This document shows positions 44,668 to 62,789 of a stretch of DNA of 64,000 bases, in pieces. The position numbers and the translations under genes are program-made. The notes below the pieces were generated by a model. The model had not been told where the DNA came from. It saw only the letters and a list, made by a program, of their open reading frames with translations, and did not search any database. This DNA comes from a virus, in the IMG/VR virus record IMGVR_UViG_3300035670_000137, positions 1 through 64,000 of that record; one strand, 5' to 3'. Within the stretch, counting starts at the first letter, position 1, and the number at the start of each line of letters is the position of its first letter.

Positions 44668-46111
44668 TCGTCGTGCAGAAAACTTAGAGTTCCGGTTAGA
44701 CCAAGCTTATAGAGTAATAAACGAACTAATCGGTGCTCTAACTTGTCCACATGAAGAACTAAGAATGCTAGCTCGAGATGTAGCAGTTAGCTATATGGAG
44801 AGTGTAAATGAAAGCCAAACTGTTAGCCAAACTAGAAAGTGAATTGCTTAGGTACAACAAACTGCGTCAAGAACTAATTAGTATCAATTGGATTCGTAAC
44901 AAAAAAGAAGTAGATCGTGTAGTAGCTTTGCTGTATGAATCAAATAAGTTAATTGCTCAGTACAGAGCAGATTATAATGAGTTTATGAATTCTGATCTTG
45001 AATCACTGAGTTAAAGCCTGTATAATATTATTCATACGATGAGGGAACGCAGCCGACTCCGACATTCAAAGGACACGGAAAGCGTCGCAAGGCAAGTACG
45101 TCATCGGACATACCATGAGTTTTTAAGTCCAAGTTCTCAGAAAAACTTTTTAGTACTGACCTAGCTAACCACAATCCTGGACGCCAGGCGGCGGGAAGAG
45201 TCCAGTGGTCTTATAAACATGAGTTCCCGAACCTCAGAAAATCGGATAAGAGAGCATCACTAGAGTAAAGCGCGTATTCATCGTGAGCGACTCAACATGA
45301 CGGTGTGGAGAGACCACTGCCGAGTCTAGACAGAAAAATCAATAGGACGGTCAAGCACTCCTATCTCTGTTAGCAAGCCGAGCGAAACTTGACACGTTGC
45401 TGGCGTTCTAAATCGACCTTATAAATTTAGCGGATACGGGCTTCACGATACGAAGCCCCTTTAGTAAGTATAGTGTAAAGCGCGAGGATGTCGCGGTTAG
45501 TTGCAGCTAGCGAGGTAATTCACCTGCAAGTGTTTACTGACTTTTCACTGTACTTTCTAAAGGAGGTTAAGTATGCGATCATATGCAGTTATTTGTAAGA
45601 TTAATTGGGAAGTAATTGGTGAAGTATATGCAGCAACATATAACCAAGCACTGACCCTAGCCCGCAACAAGTTTTACTGGACTGAAGTGGCTGTAGCACT
45701 TGATTGTCCGGATTCACTCACTTTGGATGCAGCATGAACGAGTCTATTTCTTTGCACATAATTGTAACACCTCTCGACAATGGCGATTTTAGGATCTATT
45801 CGAAAGAGTGCAATGCTGAGTATGTAGTAAATAAAAACCAGGTGGAAAGAGAAGTAGGTTCTCTTGCTAAGTTCTGGTGGGCGGCACAAGAAATTTCATC
45901 TTGATTTTTCTTAGCGAACCGCGTATAATATTAAAATGATGTGAGAGAACGCAAGGGGAAACAATCGCGATGAGTACCCTTGCCGGCTCTTTGAAGATAA
46001 TTTAATGCAGTTCACTTGGTGTTCCTAGTGTTCAATCGGGAATATAAGAACTTAATTGGGACTGAAATATAGGCTACGGTTCCAGCCAAGTATACTGCCT
46101 TAAGTTATTTT

Positions 46112-46278: not shown

Positions 46279-46561
46279 GTCAAGGAAAGCAAATGGATTA
46301 CTATATTGTATATAATTCAGACGGAAGAATAGTACAGAAGTTTGCTTTCCGTTCCAGTTTATCAGAATATATGAAGACCGCATATGATATGGGTAATAAG
46401 GTTACATATCGCAGATTTAAACTTTAGTAGAATAGGGGACACCTGGCGCTGTGCGAATCCCCCGCATGAAGTAGCCACCTAAATTACATAGACAATTTGA
46501 GTAATCAGACCGATCTAGTAGTCTTAGATGCCTAGGTCGCCGGACGCTGTAACCGGCTAAG

Positions 46562-46740
46562 TATATTTAGAAGGCCTGTTCCAGATGGTTGGAGTTAATC
46601 GTACTAGCCGGCCAGCTAGTAAGTGTCTTAGTGGTTTCTGTGACCGAGATCGCAAATCGGTACATCCATACTGAAGTCTGCAGCTTTACAGATGACACGA
46701 GATTAATGAGGTTCGACTCCTCACGGGCCTTCTAAGTATA
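46562..46740 (+). ncRNA. tRNA-like ncRNA with expanded anticodon arm, no CCA
   Basis: Long terminal stem, D-like hairpin, TGAGG-TTCGACT-CCTCA T arm. Confidence 0.6.
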
Positions 46741-46908
46741 TTTAAGGAATTAAAATGTCAGCAGACGACTTAATTATTATTTACAGGTGGGCAGATGGTA
46801 CATGGTGCGAGCCAGAAGAACTAGAAGATATGCTAACCTGGAAAAGTGATGACTTCGAAGTATTATCACTAACACTTGAAGAATTTCAAGACTTATTGTA
46901 AAGAATAC

Positions 46909-46991: not shown

Positions 46992-47220
46992 AATCTATAT
47001 GAAAACATACGAATATACTCTAACATACTTAAAAGCAAATAAAGAAAGAACTAGATATATTGCTGGTTCTGAGGGTAAATATGTTCAGATAATGCAACAT
47101 ACCCTTGATGTAGTGGCGTACATATATGAAAAGCAACCTATAGATGTACTAAACGATTTTGCAGATGTTAAATTAGATAAATAATGGCCGAGTGGTGAAA
47201 TTGGTATACACAAGGGACTT

Positions 47221-47880
47221 AATTAAATTTGAGCACTAAGATAGGAATATTTTATGTGAATGTTGTCAAATTCGGTGAAAGCTAAGTCGAAAGATATGCT
47301 AATACCGAGCCAAGCTTGAGGTTGTATATGGGTTATGAAACTAAGTACGCTAACTGGAAAGAATTGGTAATTGAAGCTTCACAAACTACTAATTCAGCTA
47401 CAGAAGCAGCAGCTAAGTTAGATATTAAATACGATACTTATAAGAAGTATGCAATTAAGTATGGAGTATTTAAAACTAATCAAGCTGGTATAGGGGTTTC
47501 CAAACCTAAGCAGGATAATATAGGAAAAATACCGTTAATTGATATTTTGGAAGGAAAACACCCTCAATATCAGTCCAATAAACTAAGGCTTCGACTACTG
47601 TCGGAAAAGGTATTTATACATAGATGCAGTGGTTGTGATCTAGAACTATGGTTGGGTAATCCAATACCATTAGAGCTAGATCATATTGATGGTAATTCAT
47701 CTAATCACCTATTAGAGAATTTAAGACTACTGTGCCCTAATTGTCATGCTCTAACCTCTACATATAGAGGTAGAAATAAACTTCAAGAAGGTGTAGAGAC
47801 TAGATGGCAACCATCCAGACCGGATGAAGGTATAGTCCAGACCACGAAATGAACAGTGTAGTGAAAACTATAGTGGTATG
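47221..47880 (+). mobile_element. Group I intron
   Basis: P AAATTCGGTGAAA, Q AATACCGAGC, R GTAGAGACTA, S AAGGTATAGTCC; exon ends in U, intron ends in G. Confidence 0.9.
47328..47852 (+). CDS. Intron-encoded HNH homing endonuclease
   Basis: CSGC...LELDHIDGNSSNH..ENLRLLCPNCH. Confidence 0.9.
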   Translation: MGYETKYANWKELVIEASQTTNSATEAAAKLDIKYDTYKKYAIKYGVFKTNQAGIGVSKPKQDNIGKIPLIDILEGKHPQYQSNKLRLRLLSEKVFIHRCSGCDLELWLGNPIPLELDHIDGNSSNHLLENLRLLCPNCHALTSTYRGRNKLQEGVETRWQPSRPDEGIVQTTK

Positions 47881-48422: not shown

Positions 48423-48950
48423 ATGGCAAATATATTCTTTGCCTCAGATCATCACCTGGGGCATGAAAACATGCTCAAGTTTAAGAGAAATGATGATAGT
48501 CCACTAAGGGATTTTTCACACGTCGATCATATGAATGAATATATCATAGAACGACATAATGCTAGAGTTAGACCAGGTGATAAAACCTACTTTCTAGGTG
48601 ATGTAGTTATGTCACATAAGTGGCTATATCTCCTAGATAGAATGAATGGTGAGAAGGTACTGATTAAAGGAAACCACGATACTGCTAAACTATCTCAGTA
48701 TACTCCTTATTTCAAGGATATTCGCGGTAGTCATCAGTTTTCTGGCATTATAATGACTCACATACCAATTCATTCTGAGTGTCTAGCTAGATGGGGTGTT
48801 AATATTCATGGGCATCTACACTACCATAAAATTATGGATCAGTATGGTAGACCAGATAAGCGTTATTACAACGTAAGTATGGAATGCCTAAAAGATTATA
48901 CACCGATCAGCTTAGAGGAAATAAAATCTGAACTTGATCTCATGGCTTAA
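48423..48950 (+). CDS. Calcineurin-like metallophosphoesterase
   Basis: SDHH.GH, LGD, GNHD, HGHLH. Confidence 0.9.
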   Translation: MANIFFASDHHLGHENMLKFKRNDDSPLRDFSHVDHMNEYIIERHNARVRPGDKTYFLGDVVMSHKWLYLLDRMNGEKVLIKGNHDTAKLSQYTPYFKDIRGSHQFSGIIMTHIPIHSECLARWGVNIHGHLHYHKIMDQYGRPDKRYYNVSMECLKDYTPISLEEIKSELDLMA

Positions 48951-49060
48951 TCTTGCTATAATATTATTTCTGAAGTGCGGAAGGCAATATGAATGAGATA
49001 CTTCGTTAGGCATTCCAAATTTCAGACTTGATTTTGTTAATCGAAGCCTGTATAATATTC

Positions 49061-50470
49061 ATATACACTGAGGAAAGCGAATAGCGCTTAACGACGGTTA
49101 AGCTACTCGGGCGCAAACGGCGGGTGACGCGTCCTGATATAATCAGACCTCCGCTACGGACAGTTAGCTGCTGACTCCCAAATTGGTCACTTAGTGTATA
49201 ACTTAGTAGTGTGGACTAGTGCGAAGCAGGTATGAAGTGAGGCTCAGGCGGAACGGAGTCTGTGAACCGGAGTGAAGCATACTAAGATAGCTTTATTAGG
49301 GAGCTTAATATCCTAGTACGGTGGTAGTAGTCGGAACTACTCCAACGCTTGAAGGTAAGTGCTTGCAGAACTGGTGTGACAATCGGTCAATATTCTGCAT
49401 AAACCTTCATTAGTTAGTACGATAAGCCTGTTGGGGTATTCAGAATATCCCGTTCAAAAGGTTCAAATCCTGGTTAAGCATGGCGTGCTGAACAGGGCAA
49501 GATAAACTAACTAATATAAACCTACTGATGATCTGAGGTGGTAACTCAGTGAAACGGCAGACAATCTAGCGAATAGTCGCGAACTACTCAATATAGTTCC
49601 CTACATAGCGGTCTGTCCGTATAGGTAAACCAAGAAGTGTGGATAACTGCCATGCCACTAGCGAGGAAGTCAACGCTCCTCAATATATGACAACGATAGT
49701 ACGTTGCATTGACCCAAGGGTTAGGGGCTATAGTTCAAAATGGCCTGTCTTACTTAACCCGATCCCTATCGGCATATGTTGCAGAATAATATAGAACCTT
49801 GGTAAAACGGGTTGTGCTATCCGGCCTATAGAAATAAGAGGATAGCATTGGTGAGTACTATAAGTTCGCAAATGTTCCTATAGTAAAGGACGATTGGAAA
49901 TCGACCACCTGGTCATAAGAGCCGAGACCTTATAAATAGGCAGTTTCCGTGGCTTGAAGCGGATTAGAGTGGGTATTGAGAGTACAGACACTATAAACAA
50001 GCAACTCTCTAGTGGTGCAACCCACTATTGAAAAACTAATAGTGCAACATTACGGAATTTAAGCACTTTAATCCTAGAAATTCCTAGGCCATGCCACAAG
50101 CCGAATATAACTGTAGATTGCTTGAGTCACCCGTACTCAGACACACACGGTAGGATACTGTCGACGTCCCGTAGAGAAGAGTTTTAAACTAGTAGTGTTT
50201 CTGCTTCTATCTGACTACGAAAAACGGTAAATCAGTTTCAGATAACGTGTAACTCCGTATGAAACGTCTATTAGATGCCTTTGTACTTTGAGCATTAATC
50301 AAATGTTGACTAGCCTGACGCTGGCTACGAGTCCCGTAAGGACAGTACGTAGTGATGGGATCCTGACCAAGTCACTAAAATCTTGTGGTAAGGGGCAAAG
50401 GCTGGATATTCGTATCCGGCCTTTGTTTTCTCTAGGTATTATTAGTTTAGTACCTAGAGAAAACAAAGGA
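49061..50470 (+). ncRNA. About 1.4 kb structured non-coding transcript(s)
   Basis: Own promoter, no plausible ORF, serial stem-closed domains. Confidence 0.7.
49520..49626 (+). ncRNA. Hammerhead-like ribozyme (type I)
   Basis: ACCTA-CTGATGA-stem II-GAAA-stem III-GTA-TAGGT. Confidence 0.65.
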
Positions 50471-50701
50471 GAGCCTAAATGATTGAATGCATGAACGCTA
50501 AAGAATATATTACTTTCGACCCTAAATTGCAAGAACACCTCCAGGCTTACTACACTCTCCACTATCGTGGAAAGCAGAGTAATCTGAGATTTCGCTTGGA
50601 GAAACCCTTTACTAACGTAGTTGCTATGATGCAGCATAAGATCTGCGAAATGCAACTGCAGCAATCCATTAAAGGATTTGCACTCGACCTGAGGTATTAA
50701 T

Positions 50702-51454
50702 ATGCTAGTCAAACTGCTATCGGATCTACACCTGCACGGTAATAATCCGTTTCGCTATGTCGATCACGGAGAGCACGTTTGCATCCTAGCAGGTGATATT
50801 TCAGAAGGTATGCATGGTGTGGAATGGGCGCTGGCTCGTATTCCTCGCCATATCCAGGTACTGTATGTTCCTGGCAACCACGAGTATTACGGGCAGGACT
50901 ATCCTGCTCTTAATGCTCGCTTTGCACATCATAATACCTTAGGTACTCATGTGCACGTTATGTTGAATTCAGTATTTACCAAAGACAATTGGGACGTAGA
51001 ATTTGTAGGAACTACGCTTTGGTCGGACTTCAACCTGTATGACAACCCTGTACGCCATGCTATTTCTTGGAAAATGGGTCTTAATGACTCTAGGTGGATT
51101 AAGTGCAATTCGCATACGATCACGCCTCAACACTTCCAGAATTGGAATAGCCAGGCATTAGTGTTTCTGAAGCAAGTTGCAGAAACCCCCACAAATAAGT
51201 CTCGTGTACTTGTAACACACTACTGCCCCGATTTGTCGGTGGCGCCCAAGTACCGAAACGATCCGCTAACTCCTGGATTTGCTACGCGTATTCCTGTGGA
51301 TACGCATGAAAAGTTCCAGTACCATTTCCATGGGCATACTCACTCTAGTATGAATTACGAGTATAACTATGGGACTAAGGTAGTCTGTAATCCTAGAGGA
51401 TATGGTTACGAAAATATGTCAGGATTTAATGAGGAGTTAGTGTTAGATATTTGA
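50702..51454 (+). CDS. Metallophosphoesterase
   Basis: SDLH, AGD, GNHEYY, HGHTH, NPRGY. Confidence 0.9.
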   Translation: MLVKLLSDLHLHGNNPFRYVDHGEHVCILAGDISEGMHGVEWALARIPRHIQVLYVPGNHEYYGQDYPALNARFAHHNTLGTHVHVMLNSVFTKDNWDVEFVGTTLWSDFNLYDNPVRHAISWKMGLNDSRWIKCNSHTITPQHFQNWNSQALVFLKQVAETPTNKSRVLVTHYCPDLSVAPKYRNDPLTPGFATRIPVDTHEKFQYHFHGHTHSSMNYEYNYGTKVVCNPRGYGYENMSGFNEELVLDI

Positions 51455-53418: not shown

Positions 53419-53484
53419 TAAAAAATTTTGACTTGATTTATATTATCGAATAGCGTATAATATTACTTTAAGTCGCAGTTCTAT

Positions 53485-53706
53485 TAAATAAATCAACTGC
53501 TGCGTAGTGAGAATTTAGGATGAGGCCTATAACCCCTCTACTTTATTCGCCAGGGTTACTTCATATACTATGAGCCGATACTTCCTGCAATAGAAGGGGA
53601 AGAAAGGGGAAGAAAGTGACGAAGTCTCCACTACATATGTCCGTTAAGCTGCGTTCGTTATAGCGCGCAAAGAACCTTGCACGACATTTCTCAGTTGATT
53701 TATTTA
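53485..53706 (+). ncRNA. Y RNA-like ncRNA 1
   Basis: 15-bp terminal stem, GCTGCGT...GTTACTTCA...TTTCTC module upstream of Ro60. Confidence 0.65.
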
Positions 53707-53801
53707 GTATTGCTGCGTATATAACAGTTACTTCATCTCCAAATAATGATGGAAGGCGTGATGGCCTCCAGTCTCTGTTATAACCTTTTTCTCAATACTA
53801 A
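53704..53801 (+). ncRNA. Y RNA-like ncRNA 2
   Basis: TTAGTATTG/CAATACTAA stem, same module, ATAACAG/CTGTTAT inner stem. Confidence 0.7.
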
Positions 53802-53805
53802 TCTT

Positions 53806-53880
53806 TTTTCGCTGCGTCTTATACAGTTACTTCAATCTATGGTGATTACAACAATACTGTATATAACTTTTCCTCGAAAA
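53806..53880 (+). ncRNA. Y RNA-like ncRNA 3
   Basis: TTTTCG/CGAAAA stem, same module, TATACAG/CTGTATA inner stem. Confidence 0.7.
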
Positions 53881-53887
53881 TTCCAAA

Positions 53888-55441
53888 ATGACAAAACTAA
53901 ATCCAAAAACACAAAACACTATTGAACACGCTATCTCGGCCAATGGCAATCTTCAGATTGCTAAAGATCAGGGACAGACGTTCTTTGAGACCCTTGTCGG
54001 ACATATGTACGGCAAGGATCGTTTCTACACTAGCAATGAAGATGTTGCAAAGCGTTTGCTTTCCGATATCCAAGTCCTCGTTCGTAAGAATAAGTTGGAC
54101 TATATTGCTAATGTAATTCTGTATGCTCGTGAAAAGGTTTTCATGCGGTCGATGCCTATTCTAGCTACAGTTTACTTTGCTAAGGCATTGCGCGATTCCA
54201 AAGTATCCTTTCCACAACTTCGTAATCTAGTTTCTTCGGTCATTCAACGAGCTGACCAGGTAACTGATATGTACGCTGTTGCCTTAGAGGTCTTTGGAGA
54301 TAAGCGTAAAGTGCCCAATGCCATCAAGCGCGGTGTATCGGACGCCATGAATAAGTTTACCGTATATCACTACGGTAAATATAACCGTGAAGCCGGTGTC
54401 ACATTCAAAGATGTGGTGCGTATCGTACATCCAGAACCTCGCGATGACAACCAAAGTCAGACTTTCAAGATGATTCTTGAAAACAATCTGCCCGTGCCAT
54501 ATACGTGGGAAACTGAACTCTCCCGCAACGGTCAACTTCCGAAAGAAGTTCAAAAGACTAAGGCTCAGCTATGGGCCGAGCTCGTACAATCCGGCAAACT
54601 CGGATATATGGCATTACTTCGTAACCTTCGTAACATAGTTCAGTCAGGGGCTGACGTTATCGGTGAGGTGGCGAAACGGCTAGTCGATGCAGAACAAGTT
54701 CACATTTCTAAGCAGCTTCCCTTCTCCTACCTAAAGGCTCTAGACGCCGTTAAGGACGCCCCCGCAAAGCTGAAGTGGGCAGTAAGTGAGGCTCTTGATG
54801 TATCCTGTGCTAACGTACCTGCACTAGGAAAGAAAGTGTGGATCATTGTCGATGGTTCCGGCTCTATGTTGGGTTCCCATTATGGACGCATGGGACGCAA
54901 TGAGGCGCTAGGTGAGTGTCCTTTCCAGACCGCGGCTGTATTTTGTGCAGCCCTGGCTAAATCAAATCGTGATGCTAGTGAACTAGCAGTTACCATCTTT
55001 AGCGACAACGCTCAGATGGTTGATCTGAACCCTCGTGATTCAGTATCCACAATGGTGGAGAACCTCACGAAGAAAGTTCAAGGTGGTGGAACTAATCTAC
55101 AGGCAGCCTTGAATATGAAGTCACGGTTAGGTTTTGAGCCAGACACAGTTGTAATCCTCTCAGATATGGAAGTTAACCAACTGTCAACTGGATCGTATGG
55201 TGGAGGCTATTCTTGGAATAGACAAGACAATACGATTGCAAACATCAGCAAGATGTTTGACAAGAACTGCTATAAAGTAGCAGTAAACCTAGCTAGCGGC
55301 GTTTCAACGCCGGTTCCAAAAGAGCATGGCTTTGTCCAACTAGCAGGGTTTAGCGAGCGAATCTTCGCCCTAATCCCAGAATTGCGAAATAGTCGGACTA
55401 CGGTTGAAACACTGTTCAGTCGACCATTTGCAGCAGTTTAA
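53888..55441 (+). CDS. rsr: Ro60 / Rsr RNA-binding protein (TROVE + vWA)
   Basis: VIQRADQ, KYNR, PYTWETELS, LGYMALLRNLRN, QLPF; vWA DGSGSM, GGTN, LSD. Confidence 0.93.
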   Translation: MTKLNPKTQNTIEHAISANGNLQIAKDQGQTFFETLVGHMYGKDRFYTSNEDVAKRLLSDIQVLVRKNKLDYIANVILYAREKVFMRSMPILATVYFAKALRDSKVSFPQLRNLVSSVIQRADQVTDMYAVALEVFGDKRKVPNAIKRGVSDAMNKFTVYHYGKYNREAGVTFKDVVRIVHPEPRDDNQSQTFKMILENNLPVPYTWETELSRNGQLPKEVQKTKAQLWAELVQSGKLGYMALLRNLRNIVQSGADVIGEVAKRLVDAEQVHISKQLPFSYLKALDAVKDAPAKLKWAVSEALDVSCANVPALGKKVWIIVDGSGSMLGSHYGRMGRNEALGECPFQTAAVFCAALAKSNRDASELAVTIFSDNAQMVDLNPRDSVSTMVENLTKKVQGGGTNLQAALNMKSRLGFEPDTVVILSDMEVNQLSTGSYGGGYSWNRQDNTIANISKMFDKNCYKVAVNLASGVSTPVPKEHGFVQLAGFSERIFALIPELRNSRTTVETLFSRPFAAV

Positions 55442-62682: not shown

Positions 62683-62789
62683 TATACGCTGCACTTATAA
62701 GAGATACTTCATAAGTTCGACTCTTATATCCGGGGCCACTATCCCGGATACGCCGTTGGTGGCATACTCTTATTACCTTTTCTCGTATA
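62683..62789 (+). ncRNA. yrlA: YrlA-type Y RNA (permuted tRNA-like domain)
   Basis: Same module as RNAs upstream of Ro60, enclosing T arm, closed acceptor hairpin and D arm in that order. Confidence 0.8.

Follow-up and report, generated by a model that had tools for sequence, protein, structure and literature searches.

The locus and its relatives

This study concerns a stretch of about 1.4 kb without protein-coding genes (49061-50470) in the genome of a virus, IMG/VR record IMGVR_UViG_3300035670_000137, where it is bracketed by two phosphoesterase genes (48423-48950, 175 aa, and 50702-51454, 250 aa). We analyzed positions 1 to 64,000 of this record, hereafter called the window, which represent 64 kb of a 76.8-kb virus contig; window coordinates are used throughout. 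An initial annotation had read the stretch as a non-coding RNA (ncRNA) operon. Below, we describe its promoters, its terminator, its stem-closed domains, and the hammerhead ribozyme in its middle, and we argue that it probably yields a long transcript that cuts itself into two structured RNAs.

The source virus is an uncultured, distant T5-like phage; T5-like phages of Vibrio, Salmonella, and Escherichia have counterparts of its fused protease/capsid protein with about 40% identity. The right half of the window is an RNA-rich block with 24 tRNAs and a permuted tmRNA, and also holds the gene of a TROVE/vWA Ro60 protein (53888-55441). The operon downstream of the ncRNA unit consists of a 73-aa open reading frame (ORF; ATG at 50479), the 250-aa phosphoesterase, and an SLT transglycosylase.

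Relatives were found mainly through proteins. Comparison of the Ro60 protein led to a 112-kb phage contig (L006/L007/L088, hereafter L006) with a 76% identical Ro60. A homologue alignment of the downstream phosphoesterase added L092 and L091 (50%), L096 (50%), L089 (63%), L090 (61%, at a contig end), and the metagenome contig L008 (49%). Some 75 metagenomic homologues of this enzyme share 45-78% identity with it; the metagenome scan with the same alignment returned mostly distant cellular homologues, L008 being the sole useful one. Searches with the DNA itself gave little. An exact 21-mer from domain 1 matched only the L006 contig in IMG/VR, a DNA search of the whole L092, L096, L089, and L090 contigs recovered a 17-mer alone, none of 50,697 cultured phage records matched the unit in blastn, and a pattern scan of genome contigs returned chance or coding matches and nothing else. 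The comparison with sequencing runs covered DNA contigs. Those of the source study include both forms of the unit, and a freshwater run provided a further variant, X4, which has domain 4.

A non-coding unit with its own promoters and terminator

As the initial annotation had stated, there is no credible ORF here in an otherwise gene-dense phage. The longest frame within 49057-50478 is 51 aa, all six frames are rich in stop codons, and the unit (49063-50432) holds the largest gap free of ORFs and tRNAs in the window (1337 nt, the next being 659 nt). L006 retains only 38 aa of the 51-aa frame, which is closed in both L092 and L008, and none of the small ORFs is conserved in these three relatives. 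Stop-codon recoding was considered as an explanation of the ORF-free stretch and rejected, as reading TAA, TAG, or TGA as sense opened nothing longer than 148 codons.

Two promoters, P1 and P2, precede the unit, P2 being the consensus promoter named in the initial annotation. Both belong to an ACTTGA-N18-20-TATAAT family that occurs nine times in the window (0.11 expected) and also stands ahead of the Ro60/Y-like RNA operon (53431-53461) and of tRNA clusters; judged by their motifs, the unit's promoters are of a sigma70 type used phage-wide. The -35 and -10 elements of P2 and the first ~25 transcribed bases are kept in L006, where the sequence at P1 (48951-48977) is 96% identical as well, and P2-type promoter elements with the first transcribed bases recur at other units in the relatives. 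Transcription of the unit is inferred, with a start near A49063.

At the other end lies an intrinsic terminator. Its stem has a different sequence in L006 with the pairing preserved, and L092 and L008 have terminators of their own at the equivalent place, which makes four lineages in all. A second, 22-bp hairpin reuses the 3' arm and the U-tract of the terminator, and its own 3' arm extends into the Shine-Dalgarno sequence that precedes the 73-aa ORF. Conservation of this hairpin in L006 is not obvious; it may control read-through transcripts or serve as a bidirectional terminator.

Two copies of the motif GAAGTGYGGAW lie in the window (0.05 expected), at 48972-48982 and 49634-49644. Since one copy lies just 3' of P1 and the other 13 nt past the predicted hammerhead cut, both are close to predicted 5' ends of RNAs.

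A type I hammerhead in the middle of the unit

The hammerhead mentioned in the initial annotation, with its core at 49525-49531, is borne out by comparison. The window copy has the full type I core (C3-U4-G5-A6-N7-G8-A9 ... G12-A13-A14), an A15.1-U16.1 pair followed by an H17 that is not G and a single-nucleotide III-I junction, and three covarying helices with stem I open. CUGAUGA, GAAA, the U-H site, and the single-nucleotide junction are identical in the window, L006, L008, and L092/L091; across these and X4, the core changes only at U7 (to C in X4) and at H17 (A to C in L091), both of them free positions in the hammerhead consensus. The cleavage triplet is GUA in the window, L006, L008, and L092 and GUC in L091 and L096. 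In X4, the U-U found at 10.1/11.1 of the window copy is replaced by G-C.

Around this core, stem I occurs as ACCUA/UAGGU, as ACCAU/AUGGU, and, in L096, as CGUCU/AGACG; stem II as CUGAG/CUCAG, GCUAG/CUAGC, GCUGG/CCAGC, and GACUAU/AUAGUC; and stem III in three versions (ACGGCAGAC..., ACAUUAGUU..., and ACAUUGGCUG...). Minimum free energy (MFE) folds made independently of any comparative input form the three-way junction in the window, L008, and L092. All three stems covary: 13 of the 17 pairs are altered on both sides, and 97% of the cells are paired (29-39% with the partners slid), both figures coming from a model-fitted alignment in which one row is spurious. We relied on this alignment and on manual reading for the pair counts because MAFFT misaligned stem II and an insert in L092.

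The hammerhead is not confined to close relatives. A covariance model built from the window and L006 copies recovers L008 (46.6 bits) and L096:4849-4945 (27 bits, E 0.001); the latter, which has a U4C core change, lies exactly between two phosphoesterase genes and directly past a promoter. The stem II/loop II signature GAGCURGYGAAAYUCYAGCGAAAC was found in 29 viral contigs, and of its 21 distinct sequences, 20 fold into a complete type I hammerhead with a stem I of 4-6 bp and a GUH triplet, stems I and III being highly variable. A strict hammerhead motif scan of all loci compared gave hammerhead-like matches only. Taken together, the comparisons make the hammerhead a well-supported member of a widespread phage subfamily, predicted to be self-cleaving.

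Other hammerheads came up along the way. L096 has a second, compact, canonical type I hammerhead (L096:1032-1083; CUGACGA, stem II GUCC/GGAC, GUC cut) between tRNA-Pro and tRNA-Glu in the tRNA region of this 50%-related phage. Long-stemmed type I hammerheads, with inserts in stems II and III, lie in ORF-poor stretches of three unrelated viral contigs (L167:647-769, L170:3873-3995, and L127:9193-9319).

Conservation, modularity, and selection for base pairing

In L006, the unit is conserved in four blocks: 49048-49200 (86% identity), 49332-49406 (81%), 49521-49813 (76%), and 50085-50393 (72%). The genes flanking the unit are 72% identical, and the blocks of the unit are equal to that or higher. 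Between the blocks, 49201-49331 (domain 2) and 49407-49520 (domain 4) are cleanly absent from L006, which has insertions of its own.

Two tests point to pairing as the trait under selection. RNAalifold on the window/L006 pair finds 5, 4, 6, and 12 pairs altered on both sides in four blocks, 27 in total. A non-circular test, in which the MFE structure of the window sequence alone was scored against L006, gives canonical pairs for 22 of 36 pairs changed on both sides (61%; random canonical column pairs, 34%), and both-side changes make up 30% of the changed pairs (control, 15%). The sequence comparisons show in this way that the unit is under selection for base pairing, and that it is non-coding, conserved, and modular. 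The modular ncRNA transcription unit of the initial annotation is upheld by these compensatory changes, by the retention of promoter and terminator, and by the lack of any retained ORF.

The layout can be followed through the relatives. In the window and L006, the promoter is followed by domain 1, the optional domains, and the hammerhead, and then by domain 5, the 3' domains (variable and conserved), and the terminator. L008 has domain 1, the hammerhead, ~540 nt, and a terminator, and L092 a promoter, the hammerhead, domain 5, ~450 nt, and a terminator. L091 is laid out like L092, plus an inserted GIY-YIG gene, and L096 has only promoter, hammerhead, and gene. An ORF-free unit of 0.6-1.4 kb is present at the same locus in four lineages. 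Because the 3' parts of the distant relatives are dissimilar, the constant features are the ribozyme and the layout; the rest of the unit is, by these comparisons, modular and fast-evolving.

L091 and L092 are near-identical sister contigs apart from the endonuclease insertion, a GIY-YIG/NUMOD-like homing endonuclease gene (L091:3770-4519, 249 aa) that stands in place of 212 nt of the unit.

Such fluidity could suggest that the stretch is a non-functional spacer, made up of decayed tRNA genes or ORFs, mobile-element debris in a recombination hot spot, and a leftover hammerhead. The likeness of domain 4 to a degraded tRNA, the homing endonuclease gene in L091, the changing set of modules, and the absence of the long RNA from L096 and L089 would all fit. 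Against it stand an identity to L006 no lower than that of the flanking genes, the excess of compensatory changes, the conserved promoter and terminator, and the fact that four lineages, whose genomes are otherwise dense, keep a 0.6-1.4-kb ORF-free unit at one locus. We consider decay very improbable.

The main rival is a role in cis, in which the stretch would serve the downstream operon as a long leader: the hammerhead would leave the mRNA with a 5'-OH, and read-through and translation would be controlled by the terminator and the 22-bp hairpin. The syntenic hammerhead of L096 comes right after a promoter, in the 5' untranslated region of the phosphoesterase gene with no terminator between; in L092, it likewise lies directly past a promoter; and several hammerheads of the subfamily (e.g., L200, L212, and L203) stand just upstream of a ribosome-binding site and ATG. 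The 50420-50469 hairpin, moreover, competes with the 3' arm of the terminator and covers part of the Shine-Dalgarno sequence. A leader, however, has to contend with the strong intrinsic terminator that separates the RNA from the next gene in four lineages, can hardly account for ~800 nt of structure selected for pairing, and gets no help from a hairpin that is not obviously kept in L006. On balance, we find a cis-acting leader unlikely, if worth keeping in mind.

The domains of the unit

The features are collected in Table 1. The initial annotation had described back-to-back domains with terminal stems, and all closing stems that it named are present in the sequence; the ~800 nt of further hairpins that it placed after the ribozyme are there as well, ending in the 14-bp, UUCG-loop terminator. 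The z-scores compare folds with the stated domain boundaries to shuffled sequences; blind sliding 200-nt MFE z-scores over the unit are unremarkable.

Table 1. Elements of the ncRNA unit in window coordinates
Feature	Position	Strand	Description
P1, upstream promoter	48934-48962	+	TTGATC-17-TATAAT, TG-extended; overlaps end of 175-aa phosphoesterase gene
P2, promoter	49028-49056	+	TTGATT-17-TATAAT
Domain 1	49063-49199	+	10-bp closing stem 49063-72/49190-99; MFE -46 kcal/mol, z -3.0
Domain 2	49202-49286	+	Stem-closed, four GGA; fold z +0.44, no better than shuffles
Small hairpin (49320-49349) and domain 3 (49350-49409)	49320-49409	+	Domain 3 closing stem 49350-56/49403-09
Domain 4	49409-49515	+	tRNA-like four-way junction; 10-bp closing stem 49409-18/49506-15; z -3.4
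Type I hammerhead (predicted self-cleaving)	49520-49626	+	Stems II and III closed, stem I open
Hammerhead stem I	49520-24 with 49622-26	+	ACCUA/UAGGU, 5 bp
Hammerhead core CUGAUGA	49525-31	+	
Hammerhead stem II hairpin	49532-50	+	
Hammerhead GAAA	49551-54	+	
Hammerhead stem III	49554-49620	+	9 bp, one bulge, ~45-nt branched insert
Cleavage triplet GUA	49619-21	+	Predicted cut between A49621 and U49622
Domain 5	49629-49803	+	~175 nt directly 3' of predicted cut; closed by ACCAAG/CUUGGU
Domain 6, variable segment	49804-50039	+	Poorly alignable even to L006, which has own insertions there
Domain 7, conserved 3' region	50040-50395	+	Several hairpins; 72% identity with L006
Intrinsic terminator	50396-50432	+	13-14-bp stem, UUCG loop, U-tract; -23.8 kcal/mol, z -5.8
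22-bp hairpin	50420-50469	+	Reuses terminator 3' arm and U-tract; -33.8 kcal/mol, z -8.4

Domain 1 is 86-89% identical to its L006 counterpart, including a 42-nt identical block, and one of its hairpins, GCUUAAC/GUUAAGC, reads GAUAAUU/AAUUAUC in L006, with four of the seven pairs altered on both sides. Its 3' half recurs at the start of L008, and the GGUAAAACGGGUUGUG block stands under a separate upstream promoter unit in L092. At the 5' end, an RNase P-like reading of GAGGAAAG was discarded: Rfam gives no RNase P match, and in L008 an ATG follows the same promoter-proximal sequence.

For domain 2, the initial annotation had suggested a CsrA/RsmA sponge, a role that could also be imagined for the whole unit. 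Its four GGA triplets within 85 nt are indeed present but not enriched (3.15 expected, P=0.39; 19 against 23.6 expected across the unit). One of them is of the A(N)GGA type, none is presented in a hairpin loop of the MFE fold, as a CsrA sponge would have it, the fold does not surpass that of shuffles, and Rfam gives no CsrB/Rsm match. Copies of the domain were sought in the relatives, and it is known from the window phage alone, with a clean deletion in L006. As GGA is not enriched and the domain is not conserved, the sponge is unsupported, and we regard it as hardly credible.

Domain 3 forms a nested 7+7-bp hairpin (z -2.6); together with the small hairpin ahead of it, it is kept in L006, where four pairs are altered on both sides. 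In domain 4, one hairpin resembles an anticodon arm (7-nt loop UUCAGAA) and another a D arm, and GGUUCAAAUCC is T-loop-like; the AGG-TTCAAAT-CCT element noticed in the initial annotation is found at 49459-49471. The domain is cleanly missing from L006, and in the X4 contigs it is ~85-90% identical with GGTTCGAATCC as the T-like loop. It is a tRNA-like four-way junction but not a tRNA: neither ARAGORN at the default and 90% thresholds nor the Rfam tRNA model calls one, and a true tRNA was rejected with only a poor, tRNA-Leu(CAG)-like call (49411-49481) at the 80% threshold of ARAGORN in its favor.

On the far side of the predicted cut, the closing helix and the first hairpin of domain 5 (GUGG/CCAC versus GCGG/CCGC) are preserved through compensatory changes in L092/L091, which also keep the strand CUAUAGUUCWAAAWGGCC, present with changes in L006; the GCGG/CCGC hairpin occurs in L008 as well. 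In domain 7, 12 predicted pairs are altered on both sides between the window and L006.

Relation to known RNA families

The initial annotation had asked for GOLLD- and ROOL-class RNAs to be excluded. With cmscan, we compared 48900-50600 with all 4227 Rfam 15 families at E<=10 and the whole window at gathering thresholds. No family, GOLLD, ROOL, OLE, RNase P, CsrB/Rsm, and Y RNA included, matches within 49061-50400 at either setting. Weak 'miRNA'-type hairpin matches at 50378-50550 all stem from the 50420-50469 hairpin, and the scan of the whole window at gathering thresholds gave the tRNAs and the tmRNA only.

These results bear on the other form of the initial reading, a single giant, ornate RNA acting as one piece in the manner of GOLLD or ROOL, with the hammerhead junction mainly architectural or rarely cleaved. 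Its size, ORF-free state, phage origin, and placement within a tRNA island fit the reports on GOLLD and ROOL (PMC12286853), and the non-canonical 10.1/11.1 pair of the window copy and the core-adjacent oddities in L092 and L096 would suit a junction of this kind. On the other hand, GOLLD, ROOL, and OLE go unmatched, the other members of the hammerhead subfamily are canonical, and distant relatives share the hammerhead and domain 5 only. The idea is further weakened because modules are gained and lost among close relatives, a block in L092 stands under a promoter of its own, and a ribozyme splits the transcript. A single giant RNA appears improbable to us.

Motifs of two further systems were looked for. 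The Y-like docking motif WTACTTCA occurs at 53556, 53728, 53827, and 62704 and nowhere within 49061-50470, and the YrlA motif GNCGAA, checked by eye only, was not convincingly found. As for VIPR-type YNNGG repeats, neither strand of the window, L006, L092, or L008 has a run of at least five GGY-phased pentamers.

RNA-related features in the neighborhood

Four Y-RNA-like units (53486-53880 and 62683-62789) share the frame CUGCG...WUACUUCA...UUUYCUC between stems. Three of them immediately precede the TROVE/Ro60 gene and follow a promoter of the ACTTGA-N18-20-TATAAT family. Ro60-like ORFs, 30-32% identical, are also present in the L092 contig (G001:13357-14469) and the L090 contig (G004:37515-38615), and there is none in the L096 fragment, which has the minimal hammerhead only. 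The co-occurrence of Ro60 and the long RNA across contigs is a hint only, the contigs being fragments.

The tRNA region has two more gaps of ~0.6 kb free of ORFs and tRNAs (45015-45673 and 46293-46908), pieces of which are kept in L006 (44990-45064, 45432-45471, and 46426-46564). A sub-threshold Rfam group I intron match (47211-47367; 37 bits, gathering 50) adjoins an HNH-domain ORF (47316-47852).

Proposed mechanism and significance

The reading we consider probable is that of a long non-coding transcript cutting itself into structured RNAs of ~560 and ~810 nt. P1 and P2, in tandem, would drive a primary transcript of ~1.37 kb that stops at the intrinsic terminator near 50432 and forms a string of independently folding, stem-closed modules. 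In vivo, the mid-transcript hammerhead would cut between A49621 and U49622. The 5' product would then carry domains 1-4 and the ribozyme and have a 2',3'-cyclic phosphate end, and the 3' product would carry domains 5-7, start with a 5'-OH, and end in the terminator hairpin. In bacterial RNA decay, such ends slow 5'-end-dependent or 3'-end-initiated degradation. The two products would therefore be stable, accumulate, and act in trans, most likely by binding or scaffolding proteins of the phage's RNA-centered gene block, i.e., the tRNAs, the tmRNA, Ro60 with its Y-like RNAs, and the phosphoesterases.

Several points weigh against this reading. The Rfam hammerhead models do not match at E<=10, whether with the 1.7 kb or with a 141-nt query; they also miss the unrelated canonical hammerhead of L170 at the gathering threshold and appear to be insensitive to long stem inserts. 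The U-U at 10.1/11.1 of the window copy may slow the ribozyme. L092/L091 carry a 29-nt insert with two hairpins right after A9, which, with the U4C change of L096, means that some copies may be weak or merely structural junctions. The hammerhead pair counts come, as said, from a model-fitted alignment. Beyond the hammerhead and domain 5, the 3' half has no detectable similarity in L092 and L008, and the long 3' RNA is therefore conserved in layout only. Finally, per-domain covariation statistics are thin because there are only ~5 lineages.

More speculatively, the hammerhead and domain 5 may represent a new class of phage RNA that is made with a 5'-OH on purpose, the locus being a circuit for processing and repair of RNA ends. 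We rate this as a long shot. If true, the cyclic phosphate and 5'-OH ends would be natural substrates of the two flanking phosphoesterases and of the Ro60/RNA-repair block; end healing, ligation, or circularization of a large structured RNA would become possible, as would decoys against host defenses that sense RNA ends or cleave tRNAs.

As phage genomes are compact, a conserved 0.6-1.4-kb unit without protein is probably useful to the phage. Because it lies together with Ro60, Y-like RNAs, the tmRNA, and phosphoesterases, a connection with RNA quality control or anti-defense can be tested. The predicted ribozyme adds a concrete maturation step by which the ends of two long structured RNAs would be defined. 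The Rfam models, moreover, miss a hammerhead subfamily with members in at least 29 viral contigs, which points to a gap in ribozyme annotation.

Comparison with known systems

Our literature search found no paper on this locus or on this layout in T5-like phages, and the closest parallels come from four groups of RNAs. YrlA Y RNAs, which bind Ro60/Rsr, mimic tRNAs and have a long enclosing stem (Chen et al. 2014, PMC4201824). The window phage likewise encodes a TROVE/Ro60 protein, and domain 4 is tRNA-like and enclosed by a long stem. The unit differs, however, in that it lies 3.4 kb upstream of the Ro60 gene with its own promoter and terminator and lacks both the WUACUUCA docking motif and an Rfam Y RNA match.

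VIPR vrRNA arrays are, like the unit, phage-encoded non-coding RNA with a hammerhead. They consist of 9-16 tandem YNNGG pentamers, with hammerheads separating the units (bioRxiv 10.64898/2026.04.26.720920), whereas the present unit has no YNNGG repeats and one ribozyme only.

Hammerheads have been described in phage and prophage transcripts, where a role in processing long phage RNA was proposed (Perreault et al. 2011, PMC3088659). The window copy shares with these type I ribozymes the complete core, the three helices with stem I open, the GUH triplet, and the location in an intergenic or non-coding phage transcript. It differs in the ~45-nt branched insert of stem III, the 5-bp stem I, and the U-U at 10.1/11.1, in being missed by the Rfam models, and in its position, which is not between genes but within an ORF-free RNA of 1.4 kb.

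GOLLD and ROOL, finally, are large (>500 nt), ORF-free, structured RNAs of phages and prophages, often located beside tRNA islands, with an unknown function (PMC12286853). The unit, too, is large, ORF-free, highly structured, phage-encoded, and near a tRNA island. In contrast to them, it matches no covariance model, varies in module content among close relatives, gives no sign of a single conserved architecture or of multimers, and has an embedded ribozyme predicted to cleave itself. Phage hammerheads and large phage ncRNAs are already known, and the unit is a variant of both kinds. The locus is a tractable addition to the large phage RNAs found near tRNA islands, such as GOLLD and ROOL.

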